This document shows, one piece after another, positions 2,131 through 10,714 of a DNA stretch of 10,714 nt. Under the pieces are notes generated by a model. That model was not told where the DNA came from, did no database searches, and worked only from the letters and a program-made list of their open reading frames with translations. Position 1 is the first letter of the stretch; the number at the start of each line of letters is the position of its first letter. This DNA comes from a virus: the UHGV virus genome UHGV-0188446; one strand, written 5' to 3'. Position numbers and translations under genes: made by a program.

Positions 2131-2610
2131 ATGGATAAAATTAATTACCCACCCCTGTTTGAGCCAGGGTTCCATGACATGGATGAAGCTGGATTAAAAT
2201 CGTATTGTGTCGATTGCTTTCCTTCATCATCCAGGCGAGGCATGCTATACTGTAATTTTATACAGCTACTCGAATCTATTCGAGAATTATCTGCTCAATA
2301 TGGCTGTTTTACAGAAATATGGGTTGATGGTTCATACACCACGTCTAAACCAGAGCCTGATGATATTGATATTTTGTTGGTATGTGACTATAGCAATATA
2401 AACTCAATACCTGTCATGCTTCGGGGCCGCGTCGATAATTTGCTTGACCGAAACTACATCAAACAAAACTACAAAATTGATGTCCTACTACTCATGAAGA
2501 ATTTAGATGACCCTAACTATGATTATGAGTACTGGCGTAGCTACTGGCGCGGTTGGTTTGGTTTTGATCGCAGTGAAAACCCGAAAGGGTTAGTGAGGAT
2601 TTTTTTATGA
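2131..2610 (+). CDS. Hypothetical protein with minimal nucleotidyltransferase (pol-beta superfamily) signature; first gene of a two-gene cassette in the rexA/rexB position
   Basis: ORF track 2131..2610, 159 aa. Motif IWVDGSYTTSKPEPDDIDILLVCD fits the hG[GS]-x(9-13)-DhD pattern of minimal nucleotidyltransferases. AAGG about 9 nt upstream of the ATG. Stop overlaps the next gene's start (ATGA at 2607-2610). No resemblance to lambda RexA. Confidence 0.7.
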   Translation: MDKINYPPLFEPGFHDMDEAGLKSYCVDCFPSSSRRGMLYCNFIQLLESIRELSAQYGCFTEIWVDGSYTTSKPEPDDIDILLVCDYSNINSIPVMLRGRVDNLLDRNYIKQNYKIDVLLLMKNLDDPNYDYEYWRSYWRGWFGFDRSENPKGLVRIFL

Positions 2611-3539
2611 ATGATAAATCAATGTTTAAAAATTGCGATAAACGCATTGATTTCATTCAAAAAGAAGTCGATGCAATGAAGCAAAACAAAACCAGGTCCT
2701 TTGCTGACATGCTTCTTTATCGCTCCATGGATTCTCATCTGAGCGATTTGAAGGCCGAAAAATTAAAGCAAGATAGTCGGCACCCACTTATCGATTTTTT
2801 TGAGCTGCGGCTGAAAGGCTCTGAGGTTGACTTTGGCTCTATTCCTTTAGAGCTGCTTGGGGCTATTTCAACAAATCTTGCAGCGCTAATACAAAGAGCA
2901 ACACACAAAATTGCCTCAGGCAAGGACTCAAAAAAAGTTCCCTACGACGTGAAAAGCTCCTTAAACCTCAGGCTGGCTGATTTATCCCCTGGGTCTACAA
3001 AATTGGGCGTCACCTTCTCTACAGGAATAGCAGAATTAGTAGAAACAGTACCCAGCAAGGCTGTAAAAGGCATATTCGATTTGTTGTTAAGCGATGACGA
3101 CAACAACTTCATGAATCACGTCGCTGAAATTGGATACAATTCCACTGTAAGCCTTAAGAGAATCGTAGAGGAATGCGATAAACACAACTTAACATTTGAT
3201 GCAAGTTGGACCGGTCCATTTAGTAATGGCACCAAGGTGGCAACTATTGACTCCAATAAAATTAAGTACTTGGTGAGTAGACTTACATCAACCATTTCAT
3301 CCCCTCCCATTACTGAAACGGTTACAGGCGAACTGGTCGTTCTATCCAAATATGGGAAGCTGGAGCTTGATGTTGGTGGTGAACATTTAAAGGCTTCCTA
3401 TCCGATTGAAATGCTAGATTTAATACAAAAAAAACACAAGGTCGGACAGATTGTTTCTCTTTTAGTGGAGACTACTGAGATTCACAATGATCGCATAGGT
3501 CTGTACCGTAAAAACCATCTTGTTAAATCGGTTCTTTAA
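2607..3539 (+). CDS. Hypothetical 310-aa soluble protein of unknown function; second gene of the cassette, translationally coupled to the nucleotidyltransferase gene
   Basis: ORF track 2607..3539. ATG overlaps the upstream stop. No long hydrophobic segments, no Walker motifs, no resemblance to RexB seen by eye. An Rx4H string (RSMDSH, aa 39-44) is noted but is weak evidence. Followed by an intrinsic terminator. Confidence 0.7.
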   Translation: MNDKSMFKNCDKRIDFIQKEVDAMKQNKTRSFADMLLYRSMDSHLSDLKAEKLKQDSRHPLIDFFELRLKGSEVDFGSIPLELLGAISTNLAALIQRATHKIASGKDSKKVPYDVKSSLNLRLADLSPGSTKLGVTFSTGIAELVETVPSKAVKGIFDLLLSDDDNNFMNHVAEIGYNSTVSLKRIVEECDKHNLTFDASWTGPFSNGTKVATIDSNKIKYLVSRLTSTISSPPITETVTGELVVLSKYGKLELDVGGEHLKASYPIEMLDLIQKKHKVGQIVSLLVETTEIHNDRIGLYRKNHLVKSVL

Positions 3540-3546
3540 TATCTCA

Positions 3547-3572
3547 CCCGGCCACCGAGCCGGGTTTTCTTT
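3547..3572 (+). terminator. Rho-independent terminator closing the cI/cassette transcription unit
   Basis: GC-rich hairpin cccggc-caccga-gccggg (3547-3564) followed by ttttcttt (3565-3572), 8 nt after the stop of the 310-aa gene. Confidence 0.7.
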
Positions 3573-3870: not shown

Positions 3871-4013
3871 CCAAAGTGAACTTTGGGGTGTGGTGAAGGG
3901 TTCATGGACGGGAATATGTCGCACGTAAAGCGGCGAGGCCTGCGGGACTATTGCCGAATTGAAGTAGGCCGAAACAGGTCGAAATGGGTCTCCCACCTAC
4001 CACACCACCAAAG
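3871..4013 (+). promoter_or_regulatory. N-leader RNA structure: long-range stem (3881-3895 with 4000-4013) plus competing local hairpin (3871-3886)
   Basis: ctttggggtgtggtg (3881-3895) is complementary to ccacaccaccaaag (4000-4013) with one bulge. ccaaag-tgaa-ctttgg (3871-3886) can form an alternative local hairpin. Lambda has an equivalent long-range leader duplex upstream of N that is processed by RNase III (recalled). The stem ends 8 nt before the N Shine-Dalgarno. Confidence 0.5.
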
Positions 4014-4030
4014 TTCATCAGGAGGTCTAT

Positions 4031-4414
4031 ATGACACGCAGAACTCAGTTCAAAGGCAATTCACGTTCTCGTCGTCGTGAGCGTTTAAAGGCAAAGGCAT
4101 TAGCTAACGGCGTGCTGGCCCGCGAAGAAGCAATAAGTTCAGAAGTATTACACCGCCCTACTCTAAGCAGAGCGCAGATTCAGGCTAAAGGTACTCACGA
4201 AACGCCTGAGCGCATAGAAGACGCTAAGCCAATTAAGTTCATGGCACAGGACGTGATCTGGCAACAGAAAGAATACAGACGCAATCTGGAGAGAGCGGCC
4301 ATTGTGTACGCGAATGAGTTTGGGCATAGGCAACCAGAAACTGGTGTATGTCTTCCAAATGTAGCTCTTTACGCGGCAGGCTACAGGAAATCAAAACAAC
4401 TGACAGCAAGGTGA
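4031..4414 (+). CDS. N: N-like transcription antitermination protein, P22 gene 24-like family, with arginine-rich N-terminal motif
   Basis: First gene downstream of PL/nutL. GGAGG Shine-Dalgarno at 4021-4025. N-terminal arginine-rich motif (NSRSRRRERLKAKALA). C-terminus ..CLPNVALYAAGYRKSKQLTAR resembles the P22 N C-terminus (..LLPGVALYAAGHRKSKQITAR) as recalled. Confidence 0.8.
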   Translation: MTRRTQFKGNSRSRRRERLKAKALANGVLAREEAISSEVLHRPTLSRAQIQAKGTHETPERIEDAKPIKFMAQDVIWQQKEYRRNLERAAIVYANEFGHRQPETGVCLPNVALYAAGYRKSKQLTAR

Positions 4415-4941: not shown

Positions 4942-4966
4942 GTTATGTATAAATAAGGAGCACACC

Positions 4967-5107
4967 ATGCAATATGCCATTGCAGGGTGGCCTGTTGCTG
5001 GCTGCCCTTCCGAATCTTTACTTGAACGAATCACACGTAAATTACGTGATGGATGGAAACGCCTTATCGACATACTTAATCAGCCAGGAGTTCCCAAAAA
5101 TGGATAA
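4967..5107 (+). CDS. cIII: CIII, protector of CII (FtsH/HflB inhibitor)
   Basis: ATG at 4967 with AAGGAG 6 nt upstream. 46-aa product MQYAIAGWPVAGCPSESLLERITRKLRDGWKRLIDILNQPGVPKNG matches lambda CIII over its length except for a shorter C-terminus, as recalled. The ORF track shows a longer in-frame form from 4865, which I reject. Confidence 0.8.
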   Translation: MQYAIAGWPVAGCPSESLLERITRKLRDGWKRLIDILNQPGVPKNG

Positions 5108-6694: not shown

Positions 6695-6991
6695 ATGCCA
6701 GCGCCTCTGTATGGTGCGGATGACCCGCGCAATTGCTCCGGTAGCTCCAAGGCGGAGGTGCTGGAAAATATCAAAAACATTTTCGACACGTTTATCGATC
6801 TGCCACCAGAAACAAAAGCAGAACGGATGTACCGACGCGATATACAACTCGCGTTAAAAAATGAGAAGGACCGAACAAACGAAACATCAATCCGACCATT
6901 CCGCAAAGCCACATATACCCACTTCCCTGAATATATCGACCCGCGCCTGCGTAATTACCGCTCACGCTATGGCGCTATCAGTAATGACTGA
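6695..6991 (+). CDS. Hypothetical protein (98 aa)
   Basis: ORF track 6695..6991. AAGG upstream. Same strand and operon context. Confidence 0.5.
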
Positions 6992-7001
6992 GGAATTTAC
7001 C

Positions 7002-7169
7002 ATGAGAGGACTTGCATACAATCCCGGCATTCTTCCGGCAGAAATGATTATTCGCCAACGCGTAAAGCCAATGCCATCGAGAGAGGAATTGCTTAAGAGA
7101 AATTCTTTTCCATCAGTGAATCAAAACAAATATCTGAATGCGATGTGGCGCAAAGGAGGCAACCAGTGA
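7002..7169 (+). CDS. Hypothetical protein (55 aa)
   Basis: ATG at 7002 preceded by GAGGA. In frame with track ORF 6861..7169, whose upstream extension overlaps the previous gene and is rejected. Stop overlaps the GTG start of the next gene. Confidence 0.45.
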
Positions 7170-8032
7170 GCAAGATTGACTATCAGGTACTGCGTGCCAA
7201 GGCAGAAAAAGCAACGTGTGGTGTATGGTCGCTCGAATATGGAGAGAGCCGATTTGATGGTGATGATGCTCTAATTTATCGCGAGGCTGCTGGATATATT
7301 CCCATTTGCAGAATTGAAGGAGCGCATCCAGAAAGCGGTTTCGATGAAGATTTCCAAATGGAACAGCAGGCCAATGCTGAATTCATCGCCGCAGCCAATC
7401 CCGCTACCGTCTTGGCCCTGCTGGATGAACTGGAAAGAAACCAGCAATACATAAAACGCCGCGATCAGGAGAACGAGGATATTGCGCTAACGGTAGGGAA
7501 ACTGCGTGTTGAGCTTGAGGAGACAAAATCAAAACTCAACGAGCAGCGCGAGTATTACGAAGGTGTCATCTCGGATGGAAGTAAGCGCATAGCAGAGTTG
7601 CAGACAAAATCTGCACCAGATTCGTTTGGCATCATCGGTGAAAATATTCGAACACAGGATAATCGAATAACGTCAGACCCTATGTTTTGTGTGTATCAAA
7701 AGTGCGAAATTGTTGTTGATGCTGATTATGACTATGACCGGATTGTCTGGGTTGATGAAGATGGCAATGAAGCCAATAAACGCCAAAGTCGTCGTCTCGA
7801 ACTACTTCACGAAAACTTTCGAGAGCCACCAGAAAAATGGCGGCGCGTTGCTGTGAAAGATATTGATGAATTCGTTACCTGCTGTTTCACCGAACAGGGT
7901 TGTAAAGACTACCTGGCAGCCAATGGTCACAATCTTCGCTTGCCATTTATATATGTAAAAAGCGGTTTCAGGAACGCTGAATATATCGGCATAAGAAACT
8001 GGCTTGCTGGCATTCGCATCAAAGGAGAGTGA
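7166..8032 (+). CDS. Ea22-like protein (coiled-coil-containing phage early protein of unknown function)
   Basis: ORF track 7145..8032. Preferred start is GTG at 7166 (AGGAGG 8 nt upstream, GTGA overlap with the upstream stop), giving [15 protein letters not shown].... Assignment rests on position upstream of ea8.5 and general resemblance to Ea22-family proteins; not verified. Confidence 0.5.
8007..8032 (+). repeat. 26-bp direct repeat, copy 1 (ctggcattcgcatcaaaggagagtga)
   Basis: Identical to 8501-8526. Encodes the C-terminal GIRIKGE plus stop of the Ea22-like gene and carries the AAGGAG Shine-Dalgarno for the next gene. Confidence 0.9.
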
Positions 8033-8034
8033 GA

Positions 8035-8526
8035 ATGCAAATTTCACCGGTTACTCTTCGTGTTGCGAAGGCGTTTATATCCAGACATCACCGACACAAT
8101 AAACCCCCGGTGGGGCATAAATTCAGCATTGGTCTGAGAAATGATGCCGGAGAATTGATAGGTGTGGCGACAGCCGGTAGACCTGTTGCACGACATTTGG
8201 ACGATGGATTAACGCTTGAAGTAAATCGCACATGTACCACAGGAGAACGCAACGCTAACAGCGCGCTTTATGGTGCTGTCTGGCGGGCAGCAAAGGCTAT
8301 GGGTTATCAACGTTGTATTACGTACACCCAGGCAGATGAATCAGGAGCATCTCTCCGCGCAGCTGGTTTTGTTCGTGTGAAAGAGCTTCCTCCAAGAAAA
8401 AGCTGGGCGGAATCAAGCGTCGCCCTGCGGAGTAAACGCGATCCGGTCGGAAACGGTGGTGTTCCTCGTGTGCTCTGGGAAATCAGGAGAATGAGTACCA
8501 CTGGCATTCGCATCAAAGGAGAGTGA
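8035..8526 (+). CDS. Hypothetical protein (163 aa), possibly GNAT-like fold; inserted gene bounded by 26-bp direct repeats
   Basis: ATG at 8035 with AAAGGAGAG upstream (the track starts at GTG 8029). Product MQISPVTLRVAKAFISRHHRHNKPPVGHKFSIGL.... The C-terminal GIRIKGE plus stop is encoded by the second repeat copy. Fold assignment is a weak impression only. Confidence 0.5.
   Translation: MQISPVTLRVAKAFISRHHRHNKPPVGHKFSIGLRNDAGELIGVATAGRPVARHLDDGLTLEVNRTCTTGERNANSALYGAVWRAAKAMGYQRCITYTQADESGASLRAAGFVRVKELPPRKSWAESSVALRSKRDPVGNGGVPRVLWEIRRMSTTGIRIKGE
8501..8526 (+). repeat. 26-bp direct repeat, copy 2
   Basis: Perfect copy of 8007-8032. Confidence 0.9.
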
Positions 8527-8728
8527 TATGAGCAGGAATACGGGTTTGTAAAAGATAACGCTTGTGAAAATGCTGAATTTCGCGTCGTCTTCACAACGAT
8601 GCCAGAGTCTGTAGTGTCAGATGATGACCGTACTCAAACATCGGGTTGGGTATTATCTTACTGTTTCTTTACATAAACATTGCTGATACCGTTTAGCTGA
8701 AACGACATACATTGCAAGGAGTTTATAA

Positions 8729-9010
8729 ATGAGTATCAATGAGTTAGAGTCTGAGCAAAAAGATTGGGTGTTATCAATGTTGTGCAGATCCGGTGTCTTG
8801 TCTCCATGCAGACATCACGAAGGTGTTTATGTAGATGAAGGTATAGATATAGAATCGGCATACAAATATTCCATGAAGGTTTATAAGTCTAATGAAGACA
8901 AATCCCCATTCTGCAATGTGCGAGAAATGACTGATACCGTGCAAAATTATTATCACGAGTACGGTGGAAACGATACTTGCCCTCTCTGTACAAAACATAT
9001 AGATGATTAA
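8729..9010 (+). CDS. ea8.5: Ea8.5-like protein (Cys/His-rich, probable zinc-binding)
   Basis: 93-aa ORF, the same length as lambda ea8.5 (282 nt) and in the same relative position between ea22 and xis. Contains C..C..HH...C...CPLC ligand candidates. Sequence matches lambda Ea8.5 as far as I can recall. Confidence 0.6.
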   Translation: MSINELESEQKDWVLSMLCRSGVLSPCRHHEGVYVDEGIDIESAYKYSMKVYKSNEDKSPFCNVREMTDTVQNYYHEYGGNDTCPLCTKHIDD

Positions 9011-9028
9011 ACCAAATATTACATAACA

Positions 9029-9057
9029 ATCCTCGCACTCGCGGGGATTTCTTTTAT
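9029..9057 (+). terminator. Rho-independent terminator after ea8.5
   Basis: 8-bp stem atcctcgc/gcggggat with loop actc, followed by ttcttttat. Confidence 0.6.
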
Positions 9058-9060
9058 CTG

Positions 9061-9085
9061 AACTCGCTACGGCGAGTTTTGTTTT
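9061..9085 (+). terminator. Second tandem hairpin plus T-run
   Basis: aactcgc-tacg-gcgagtt perfect 7-bp stem followed by ttgtttt. Confidence 0.55.
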
Positions 9086-9097
9086 ATGGAGATGATT

Positions 9098-9397
9098 ATG
9101 GGCTGTTCAACATTCAACCCTCTAACTTTACAGAAATACCAGCCAGACCCTGAAGATTTATGCTCACTGTGTGGCGGAAATCATGGTAAAGCCGCCATGA
9201 TCGAATGTAAGGACAAAATCCACATATGCCTTAATTGCGTTGATGTCCTCGTTGATATCAAAAATGAAAGAGAAGATAAAAAGCGTAGCGAGGCTATTCG
9301 CGCCTTAGATTCATGGATGCGAGATGGGTATAGTGCTGCGCAAATTTATGACTTAGCCATTTCAAAAGGCGAAATACCAGGTGTGCGCATCGAATAA
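9098..9397 (+). CDS. Hypothetical zinc-ribbon-like protein (two CxxC pairs)
   Basis: Track ORF 9086..9397. Preferred start is ATG 9098 with GGAG 6 nt upstream. Motifs CSLCGG and HICLNC. Confidence 0.5.
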   Translation: MGCSTFNPLTLQKYQPDPEDLCSLCGGNHGKAAMIECKDKIHICLNCVDVLVDIKNEREDKKRSEAIRALDSWMRDGYSAAQIYDLAISKGEIPGVRIE

Positions 9398-9437
9398 GAC
9401 GTAACCAATATTCGAATTGAAGAACTGAAAGAACACC

Positions 9438-9461
9438 AAGCCGCCTGATGGCGGTTTTTTA
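9438..9461 (+). terminator. Rho-independent terminator
   Basis: Stem gccgcc/ggcggt around loop tgat, followed by a T-run (9455-9461). Confidence 0.6.
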
Positions 9462-9474
9462 TTGGAGACAAGAA

Positions 9475-9819
9475 ATGTCAGATTTGGCTATGAAGGTTTT
9501 GAAATGGCAATCAACTGGCGATGTCGGCATCAGTAGCGCAACTCTTGCCTCGATCGCATGTGGACTGAAAAAGAATATCTATGGTCATAGCTTCGGTGCT
9601 CCACATGACGCAGCCGATTTCAGACGATGCGTTGCACTTGTTGAGCAGATCCCAGAAATCAGAGATTCATTCGACAAGGTTGCAAAGCGCGTTCCGGCAT
9701 TCAAAGGAATCCTCAACGAATGGGATTCCCTTGTTGCTCTGTTGAAGTCGGAAATGAAGATACACGGAAACAAAGCACCAGAGACTTACAGAAGAATCAG
9801 CGAGCTACGCAAGGACTAA
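9475..9819 (+). CDS. Hypothetical protein (114 aa)
   Basis: In frame with track ORF 9448..9819. ATG 9475 preceded by GGAGA 6 nt upstream. Product MSDLAMKVLKWQSTGDVGISSATLASIACGLKK.... Confidence 0.5.
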   Translation: MSDLAMKVLKWQSTGDVGISSATLASIACGLKKNIYGHSFGAPHDAADFRRCVALVEQIPEIRDSFDKVAKRVPAFKGILNEWDSLVALLKSEMKIHGNKAPETYRRISELRKD

Positions 9820-9936
9820 CCATGAAATAACACCGCCTCACACTCGATGAGGCCTGTTCATTGCTCAATGATATCCAGACCTACCATCGCCGCATCAATG
9901 CGGCTTTTTCTTGCGTGTAATTGCGGAGACTTTGCG

Positions 9937-10155
9937 ATGTACTTGACACTTCAGGAGTGGAACGCACGCCAGCGACGCCCAAGAAGCCTTGAAACAGTTC
10001 GTCGATGGGTGCGCGAATGCAGGATATTCCCTCCTCCGGTTAAGGATGGAAGAGAGTATCTGTTCCACGAATCAGCGGTAAAGGTTGACTTAAATCGACC
10101 AGTAACAGGTAGCCTTTTGAAGAGGATCAGAAATGGGAAGAAGGCGAAGTCATGA
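9937..10155 (+). CDS. xis: Excisionase Xis
   Basis: ATG at 9937 within track ORF 9847..10155. The 72-aa product MYLTLQEWNARQRRPRSLETVRRWVRECRIFPPPVKDGREYLFHESAVKVDLNRPVTGSLLKRIRNGKKAKS matches lambda Xis as recalled. Same length as lambda xis. 3' end overlaps int. Confidence 0.93.
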   Translation: MYLTLQEWNARQRRPRSLETVRRWVRECRIFPPPVKDGREYLFHESAVKVDLNRPVTGSLLKRIRNGKKAKS

Positions 10156-10714
10156 GCGCCGGGATTTACCCCCTAATCTTTATATAAGAAACAATGGATA
10201 TTACTGCTACAGGGACCCAAGGACGGGTAAAGAGTTTGGATTAGGCCGAGACAGGAGGATAGCAATCACTGAGGCTATACAGGCCAACATTGAGTTATTT
10301 TCAGGACACAAACACAAGCCTCTGACGGCGAGAATCAACAGTGATAATTCTGTTACGTTACATTCATGGCTTGATCGCTACGAAAAAATTCTCGCCAACA
10401 GAGGAATCAAGCAGAAGACACTCATAAATTACATGAGCAAAATTAAAGCAATAAGGAGGGGTCTGACTGATGCTCCACTTGAAGACATCACCACAAAAGA
10501 AATTGCAGCAATGCTCAATGGATACATAGACGAGGGCAAGGCGGCGTCAGCCAAGTTAATCAGATCAACACTGAGCGATGCATTCCGAGAGGCAATAGCT
10601 GAAGGCCATATAACAACAAACCCGGTCGCTGCCACTCGCGCAGCAAAATCAGAGGTAAGGAGATCAAGACTTACGGCTGACGAATACCTGAAAATTTATC
10701 AAGCAGCAGAATCA
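10133..10714 (+). CDS. int: Integrase Int (tyrosine recombinase), N-terminal 194 codons; continues beyond window end
   Basis: ATG at 10133. Hand translation MGRRRSHERRDLPPNLYIRNNGYYCYRDPRTGKEFGLGRDRRIAITEAIQANIELFSGHKHKPLTARINSDNSVTLHSWLDRYEKILANRGIKQKT... matches lambda Int as recalled. Overlaps the xis 3' end as in lambda. No stop before position 10714, so it is absent from the ORF track. Confidence 0.93.
   Translation, partial: MGRRRSHERRDLPPNLYIRNNGYYCYRDPRTGKEFGLGRDRRIAITEAIQANIELFSGHKHKPLTARINSDNSVTLHSWLDRYEKILANRGIKQKTLINYMSKIKAIRRGLTDAPLEDITTKEIAAMLNGYIDEGKAASAKLIRSTLSDAFREAIAEGHITTNPVAATRAAKSEVRRSRLTADEYLKIYQAAES

Follow-up and report, generated by a model that had tools for sequence, protein, structure and literature searches.

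The 10,714-bp stretch of virus genome UHGV-0188446 analysed here (the window) is part of a lambda-like Escherichia coli prophage and carries its early-left (pL) operon on the + strand. Comparison of its right part with related phages and prophages suggested that positions 9011-9936, between ea8.5 and xis at the far end of the pL operon, are probably a hypervariable xis-proximal slot, in which accessory cassettes are swapped at terminator linkers and expressed in an N-dependent manner. The slot would hold two non-essential accessory genes, designated ORF99 and ORF114 (open reading frames of 99 and 114 codons), together with the last 16 codons of lambda orf55. Its linkers would share one form, a GC-rich hairpin followed by a T-run and a Shine-Dalgarno sequence, and would be of three kinds: the double t-L4, t'I and a t'I-like copy. 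The genes, the terminators and the mosaicism of the region are already on record, and the sequences are 95-99% identical to deposited, annotated ones.

Two genes, an orf55 relic and four terminator-like hairpins in the ea8.5-xis gap

The gap between ea8.5 and xis was 926 bp in the window and 295 bp in lambda (record L003, 1511-1807), in agreement with the first-pass annotation, which had described extra DNA and two extra small genes at this place. The 99-amino-acid gene (ORF99, 9098-9397, + strand) is preceded by GGAG at 9088-9091 and encodes CxxC pairs at residues 22-25 and 44-47; the 114-amino-acid gene (ORF114, 9475-9819, + strand) is preceded by GGAG at 9464-9467. A terminator scan of the + strand found the three predicted terminators essentially where they had been placed (9028-9049, 9060-9079 and 9438-9457). 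It also found a fourth hairpin with a T-run at 9889-9904, which had been overlooked, as had a 51-nt relic of orf55 (9398-9448), the presence of the tandem terminators in lambda and the prior annotation of both genes.

Homology searches matched both genes to catalogued hypothetical genes at 95-99% identity, and structure searches found no match to ORF114 in the PDB. Neither gene emerged as a core gene of known function, and both had coding support: homologues of ORF99 from Klebsiella and Enterobacter are 50-60% identical to it, and ORF114 has 3090 representative clusters (50% identity) at E <= 1e-3, 876 at E <= 1e-10, and an AlphaFold2 model with a predicted local distance difference test score (pLDDT) of 95.6.

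Cassettes occur in many combinations, joined at the linkers

We classified 80 IMG/VR loci with ORF99, the reference phages and a few genomes by the presence of ORF99, orf55 and ORF114, and seven of the eight possible combinations were seen. Lambda has orf55 only; 434 and HK022 have orf55 and ORF114; 933W has ORF99 and the orf55 relic; Kapi1 and H19J have ORF99 and orf55; E. coli 2013C-4538 has ORF99, orf55 and ORF114; the window and loci L089 and L090 have ORF99, the relic and ORF114; and ORF114 occurs alone in Shimwellia (L011, L012) and Phytobacter (L013). Such a comparison of the xis-proximal region had been proposed by the first-pass annotation; gene presence varied, and the joints lay at hairpin linkers. 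In the 80 loci, the gene upstream of ORF99 was of the DUF4752 type, of the HK022_34/L0064 type or ea8.5, the last, as in the window, in 3 of the 80. ORF99 was followed by full-length orf55 or its relic, then by ORF114 or not, and then by one of three unrelated xis genes, in many combinations. Wherever the downstream sequence is known, ORF99 stands one or two genes upstream of xis of any type; E. coli loci and prophages from three Enterobacter assemblies show this placement.

ORF99 separates t-L4 from orf55, neighbours in lambda and 434, and ORF114 separates the end of orf55 from xis, neighbours in lambda. Pairwise BLAST alignments broke at 9096/9097, 9397 and 9464, and homology returned at 9889. 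In Shimwellia, the t-L4 linker is fused straight to the ORF114 leader, with the crossover inside the T-run/GGAG. Four different sequences were found attached to the right of the 9438-type hairpin, and two to the right of the ORF114-distal one. In an Enterobacter locus, a homologue 51% identical to ORF99 has a similar hairpin and TTTTTTATTGGAG after it, with an unrelated gene next. Among the loci compared, cassette joints always fell in hairpin/T-run/Shine-Dalgarno linkers. Because the hairpins have varied partners and keep their stems (see below), these linkers are indicated as module boundaries, and the comparison showed them to be the apparent joints for the gain, loss and exchange of cassettes.

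The linkers are shared hairpin/T-run/Shine-Dalgarno elements

The t-L4 linker (9023-9097, + strand) contains two tandem hairpins with T-runs (9028-9056 and 9060-9087), followed by the GGAG of ORF99, and its 75 bp end exactly at the next start codon. RNA folding gave -13.1 kcal/mol for hairpin 9028-9049 (z = -5.1 vs shuffles) and -11.9 kcal/mol for hairpin 9060-9079 (z = -3.1). The linker was 94-99% identical in lambda, 434, HK022, 933W, Kapi1 and E. coli 2013C-4538, where it stands behind three unrelated upstream genes. Since lambda and the others share it, the tandem terminators are not special to this phage. Terminator t-L4 is annotated in the 434 int-xis record M60848; window positions 9029-9096 aligned to 299-366 of the 434 locus, overlapping the annotated t-L4 (295-325). 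In the HK022 record X51962, a 'tL4 terminator' is among the features under the wider match. The 94 locus matches of the linker comprised 38 sequence variants, and the 14 commonest, when folded, all kept both stems (14/14). Examples of stem upkeep were an A to G change giving U-G in hairpin 2 and a G to A change restoring U-A in hairpin 1 of 434.

The left linker of ORF114 (9438-9474, + strand), found by the terminator scan and RNA folding, has its stem at 9438-9457, a T-run to 9463 and then the GGAG of ORF114; the loop contains the TGA that ends orf55 (9446-9448). The hairpin folded at -13.4 kcal/mol (z = -2.9 vs shuffles), and alignment identified it as a near-copy of t'I. Terminator t'I itself (9889-9913, + strand) forms the right-hand linker of ORF114 and immediately precedes the pI/CII box, and its hairpin (9889-9904) folded at -10.5 kcal/mol (z = -2.2). 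The sequence from 9889 onward corresponds to the annotated t'-I of 434 (M60848), and the hairpin also corresponds to a terminator beside the pI promoter and CII site in OL657226. A CII box, read as TTGC-N6-TTGC at 9911-9924, adjoins it.

Lambda has one copy of t'I, whereas the window has two diverged copies flanking ORF114; the position just before pI/xis is the same. In the alignment, the single t'I of lambda consisted of the left half of the 9438 hairpin and the right flank of 9889-9925, joined within the stem/T-run, and this indicated that ORF114 plus one hairpin is a cassette between two similar hairpins. The lambda t'I would be a recombinant hairpin or, equally, the never-inserted state. 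The first-pass annotation had taken the terminators to delimit the two genes as units. They proved not to be cassette-specific: the tandem pair is the conserved t-L4 linker, and the third is the lambda orf55 end with a near-copy of t'I.

A further hairpin, GCCTCACACTCGATGAGGC (9835-9853, + strand), is 19 nt long and lies 16 nt after the ORF114 stop codon, within the ORF114 cassette. It folded at -9.9 kcal/mol (z = -2.6), has no T-run on the + strand and has a weak one on the - strand.

Only the 3' end of orf55 remains

BLAST and tblastn identified a pseudogene fragment at 9398-9448 (+ strand), the 3' relic of lambda/434 orf55, which comprises codons 40-55 and the stop codon; the complete 55-codon frame is not present in the window. 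The 68 bp at 9397-9464 were 98.5% identical to lambda L003 1716-1783 and also matched the end of 434 orf55. By tblastn, ORF55(40-55) was found in most ORF99 loci, and the full gene is kept after ORF99 in Kapi1, H19J and some E. coli prophages. In the window and in 933W, 150 bp are deleted, with the joint ...TAAGA/CGTAAC (slash at the joint) at a 3-nt AGA microhomology; the 5' part of orf55 would thus have been lost in a separate microhomology deletion. A modelling paper has noted 'a portion of orf55' in 933W (PMC8614690).

The relic shares the frame of ORF99, and 16 residues, DVTNIRIEELKEHQAA, would be added if the ORF99 TAA were read through; the same holds in 933W and most ORF99 loci. This read-through is probably meaningless.

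The slot evidently tolerates deletion, orf55 being cut down here and in most ORF99 loci, and the databases contain many truncated or chimeric ORF114 fragments. One or both ORFs might accordingly be decaying, non-functional passengers like the relic. We consider this highly improbable. Neither ORF is truncated, and both have good Shine-Dalgarno sequences; in ORF99, 22 residues, all four Cys among them, are invariant across genera at 50-60% identity, and ORF114 keeps 8 invariant residues at 25-44% identity and has a confident fold.

Probable delayed-early cassettes rather than classical morons

From their sequence and from lambda biology, the linkers would act as intrinsic terminators: non-antiterminated polymerase would stop at them, and N-modified polymerase would read through to xis and int. 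The layout is a repeated order of terminator, Shine-Dalgarno sequence and gene with the N gene upstream, as is normal for the distal pL operon. A consensus scan for sigma-70-like promoters found none on the + strand of 8600-9900. A relaxed scan of 8900-9940 gave 5 weak sites, compared with 8.7 +/- 3.2 in shuffles, and none lay between a terminator and the next start codon. The distance from each T-run to the next ATG is about 10-17 nt, which holds only the Shine-Dalgarno sequence. Because the genes lack promoters of their own and the terminators are present, they would come only from N-antiterminated pL transcripts, as delayed-early genes.

The hairpins might instead serve mainly as recombination or mRNA-processing/stability elements, with the genes co-transcribed from pL with or without N. 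All cassette joints do lie at a hairpin/T-run, hairpin 9835-9853 has no T-run, and the stems are short (6-9 bp) with interrupted T-runs. However, all four hairpins have a canonical GC-rich stem and a T-run of at least 5, and they correspond to the annotated t-L4 and t'-I of 434 and the tL4 of the HK022 record. Their stems are kept by wobble or compensating changes, and the whole window is enriched in such terminator-like sites (27, compared with 10.0 +/- 2.9 in shuffles). We therefore regard this explanation as unlikely and favour terminators that N would override.

The first-pass annotation had likened the two genes to morons that may be expressed independently. Morons of lambdoid phages were defined for HK97 and HK022. 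In the classical form, each gene is a promoter-gene-terminator unit that is transcribed in the repressed prophage and benefits the lysogen. Like morons, ORF99 and ORF114 are extra, non-core DNA relative to lambda, lying between genes that are adjacent in relatives, and each has a factor-independent terminator-like hairpin with a T-run downstream (9438-9463 after ORF99 and 9889-9910 after ORF114). Their presence varies between otherwise near-identical phages, and a role that benefits the lysogen is compatible with the hypothetical status of both. Unlike morons, they have no upstream promoter: the relaxed scan stayed below chance, and the short stretches between the preceding T-runs and the start codons hold only a Shine-Dalgarno sequence. 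Their G+C contents (42.7% for ORF99 and 46.7% for ORF114; window, 43.9%) are not atypical, and the terminators precede the genes in shared linkers, found in lambda too, rather than belonging to an inserted gene. Thus, the genes are moron-like in the loose sense of extra DNA, the proposed independent expression found no promoter to support it, and classical morons are quite unlikely here. Both genes are best read as N-dependent delayed-early cassettes.

Three considerations count against the reading of the slot as a set of N-dependent cassettes exchanged at terminators. Termination and N read-through are deduced from sequence and old GenBank annotations; a weak or non-sigma-70 promoter beyond the reach of the consensus scan is possible; and selection for functional junctions, instead of preferred crossover, could account for part of the recombination seen at linkers.

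ORF99 probably carries a ClpX-type zinc-binding domain

ORF99 matched phrog_3680 (8.9e-69) and was 97-99% identical at the DNA level to 933W, H19J and Kapi1 over 9023-9399 or 9023-9463. It is already catalogued, by sequence match, as 933W L0063, which corresponds to VT2-Sakai H0073, H19J orf312 and Kapi1_003. Its frame (9086-9397) encodes 103 amino acids; the start at ATG 9098, 6 nt after GGAG, gives 99 amino acids, with the stop codon TAA at 9395-9397. Older records give the 103-amino-acid product from ATG 9086, whereas RefSeq gives the 99-amino-acid start in E. coli 2013C-4538 (WP_001368678.1); the latter start has the better Shine-Dalgarno sequence. The exact protein sequence was found on 58 E. 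coli contigs, and the family is narrow (Escherichia, Klebsiella and Enterobacter).

Cys22, Cys25, Cys44 and Cys47 form a C-x2-C-x18-C-x2-C pattern that was invariant in 23 homologues. Strong conservation of the N-terminal half (YQPDPEDLCSLCGGNxGKAAMIExKDKIHICxxCVDLL) gives way to a variable middle part, and the tail is again conserved (...IYDxIxxGKIPxIRI[D/E]). Pfam zf-C4_ClpX was the top match in 17 of the 23 family members, always sub-threshold (best E = 1.3e-3). A profile of the family gave 5 matches among all PDB sequences, all of them ClpX zinc-binding domains (E = 0.02-0.4; best 0.021). Aligned by hhalign with residues 14-51 of E. coli ClpX, the family scored 91.5% with 32% identity and with Cys aligned to Cys, and the UniRef cluster name of its members is 'ClpX-type ZB domain-containing protein'. 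These results suggested that ORF99 probably carries a ClpX-type C4 zinc-binding domain at about residues 20-58, followed by a helical region.

Several results speak against this assignment. The window ORF99 itself scored 15.7 bits (E = 0.014) against zf-C4_ClpX, whose gathering cut-off is 27 bits. Against a bona fide ClpX zinc finger of 55 amino acids that stands alone in a Serratia prophage (Pfam 1.7e-13), hhalign gave only 4.6%, a value that lowers confidence in the domain. The model from AlphaFold2 was of poor quality (pLDDT 63) and gave the Cys region as helices, with no zinc ribbon.

Foldseek matches obtained with this model were meaningless. The NCBIfam search of ORF99 gave far-sub-threshold ClpX matches only, and the PADLOC search gave no match. 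ORF99 was also considered as a duplicate of the neighbouring zinc-finger protein Ea8.5, and this was rejected because the two showed no similarity.

If the assignment holds, ORF99 would consist of a ClpX-type zinc-binding domain standing alone, with a helical tail. Most likely, it would act by binding either ClpX or the partners of the ClpX N-domain, thereby changing the choice of adaptor or substrate by ClpXP. The free zinc-binding domain of ClpX, supplied in trans, inhibits RssB-mediated sigma-S breakdown by ClpXP (PMC7226468), so a phage-made stand-alone copy could plausibly be a decoy, a proposal we offer as a hypothesis only. Made early from pL, such a decoy may compete with ClpX for adaptors or substrates that depend on the zinc-binding domain, or may pair with the ClpX domain, and phage or host proteins would be transiently spared from ClpXP. 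The lambda-type O replication protein would presumably be one candidate; sigma-S delivered by RssB may be another. The xis-proximal placement could also mean that ORF99 acts on the excision/integration machinery. The combined proposal, that ORF99 is an early phage decoy of the ClpX zinc-binding domain and, separately, that ORF114 defines a new all-alpha fold family, is rather doubtful. The ORF99 tail (...IRID / ...VRIE) may bear a weak resemblance to the ClpX-binding tail of SspB.

A similar G/N-(I/V)-R-(I/F) motif was seen at or near the C-terminus of several unrelated proteins of the region, in the forms GVRIE, GIRIKGE, NIRIEE, GVRIVFGQ and GVRFVFGN. The sites are in ORF99 (9380-9394), at 8011-8029 and 8505-8523, in the orf55 relic (9407-9421) and in the ORF114 homologues P0064 and L013. 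The motif may be left over from shared DNA linkers, or it may be a genuine peptide signal.

A Serratia liquefaciens prophage (L098) encodes a 55-amino-acid ClpX-type zinc finger at 3235-3402, just after a DnaB-like helicase gene, and an ORF114 homologue at 4001-4342 in the nin region, about 600 bp downstream. A ClpX-like zinc-finger protein and an ORF114 relative are thus neighbours in a second, unrelated context.

ORF114 is a widespread, predicted all-alpha protein

ORF114 matched phrog_1229 (2.5e-51) over residues 10-123 of its 123-amino-acid frame (9448-9819); the start at ATG 9475, 7 nt after the GGAG, gives 114 amino acids. By sequence, the gene is already catalogued as ORF114 of phage 434 (M60848) and as HK022_32, 'N15 early protein homolog' (gp32). 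The exact protein sequence was found on at least 1000 E. coli contigs. Residues W11, S20, P43, D45, D48, R51, C52 and W83 are invariant in relatives at 25-44% identity, with the motif G-x-SS ... P-x-D-P-x-D-x-x-R-C. ORF114 had no match in Pfam, NCBIfam or PADLOC.

The AlphaFold2 model (predicted template modelling score, pTM, 0.89) is all-alpha with seven helices. Foldseek found no fold match for it in the PDB (best E = 4.7), and in BFVD it matched uncharacterised viral proteins only, one of them from a Clavibacter phage. A profile search of PDB sequences gave weak coiled-coil/GGA1-like matches (E >= 0.01), which we judged to be chance.

In E. coli, Salmonella and Phytobacter, ORF114 adjoins xis or int; in Pantoea, it lies at the distal end of the early gene block, with unannotated neighbours; and prophages of Serratia and Yersinia have it in the nin region of the rightward operon. 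Because its location varies, ORF114 is not tied to excision; it would be a compact all-alpha protein found in the ea region of some prophages and the nin region of others. Our best guess, made with low confidence, is a general early role in host interaction. Two results tell against this role: no search gave any lead to a function, and a Pfam search of 20 longer relatives revealed no informative fusion, one of them being a multidomain FHA/DUF6585 protein. A literature search on ORF114, L0063, tL4 and phage proteins with a ClpX zinc-binding domain found no study of these genes.

Many database proteins (P0051, P0053, P0065, P0071, P0088, P0089 and P0099) fuse part of ORF114 to unrelated early genes, with dATP/dGTP pyrophosphohydrolase, Erf, Ea22 and Kil as partners. 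These may be recombinant genes or assembly chimeras.

The window and its setting

The slot is flanked on the left by ea8.5 (8729-9010, + strand; Pfam Lambda_ea8_5, 5.4e-48), and 8601-9096 was 98.8% identical to lambda by BLAST. On its right stands xis of the lambda type (9937-10155, + strand; Pfam Exc, 3.9e-41), 96-97% identical to that of lambda and H19J, and int follows from 10133. Farther left are cro (967-1167, - strand), cI (1268-1981), the N gene (4031-4414; Pfam N_peptide, 1.7e-15), a cIII thermoregulator RNA (4954-5012; Rfam RF01804, 88.5 bits, E = 5e-21) upstream of or within cIII, kil, abc2 (6695-6991), an Ea22-like gene (7145-8032) and an XF1762/Mom-like gene (8029-8526; NCBIfam XF1762_fam, 5.2e-61). 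The thermoregulator was the sole significant match in an Rfam scan of the whole window, and none fell in the ea8.5-xis region. A lambda-type O replication protein gene presumably begins at the left end of the window.

The best phage record spans at most 45% of the window, which therefore appears to be a new mosaic of known parts. Among E. coli complete genomes, none had a single place spanning at least 80% of 8700-10160. The same right-hand arrangement does exist in other contigs, and 9023-10714 was present contiguously in two IMG/VR contigs.

Directly 3' of cI, at the position of lambda rexA/rexB, an overlapping gene pair (2131-2610 and 2607-3539, + strand) matched the PADLOC candidate defence system PDC-M63 (M63A, 1.8e-41; M63B, 7.5e-45) and had no NCBIfam match. 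Its G+C content is low (39.6% and 40.5%), and the pair is followed by a strong terminator (3546-3565).

The sequence ctggcattcgcatcaaaggagagtga, about 26 bp long, is present as a direct repeat at 8006-8032 and 8501-8527. It forms the final codons (...GIRIKGE*) of both the Ea22-like and the XF1762/Mom-like genes and carries a Shine-Dalgarno sequence. With this linker repeated on both sides, the Mom-like gene appears to be another linker-flanked cassette.

Comparison with known systems

As a genome feature, the slot is of little importance. Its interest is as an unusually clean example of cassette exchange at terminator hairpin/Shine-Dalgarno linkers. The two proteins are widespread among E. coli and Shiga-toxin prophages and are tractable targets for work on early phage-host interactions: ORF99 looks like a free ClpX zinc-binding domain, and ORF114 has more than 3000 clusters in its family and a confidently predicted fold without a solved relative. 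If the proposal made for it is true, ORF114 would establish a new fold family, all-alpha, among early phage proteins.

Phages 434 and HK022 resemble the window most closely on the ORF114 side, with about 95-96% DNA identity over 9397-10200 and with the same gene, left hairpin/Shine-Dalgarno linker, t'I and xis. They have a complete orf55 before ORF114, whereas the window has the last 16 orf55 codons with ORF99 upstream. Their records also show the same t-L4 sequences in the same position, just after the last ea gene. Phage 933W shares the orf55 relic and its hairpin with the window; there, a different xis comes directly after ORF99, whereas in the window ORF114 and then a lambda-type xis follow. 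At the protein level, the zinc-binding domain at the N-terminus of ClpX (PF06689; PDB 1OVX, 2DS5-8) has the same Cys spacing as ORF99, and both contain CS(F/L)CG and ICxxCVD(L/V). Unlike ClpX, ORF99 has no AAA+ module and has its own helical C-terminal part of about 45 residues, ending in ...GKIPxIRI(D/E).

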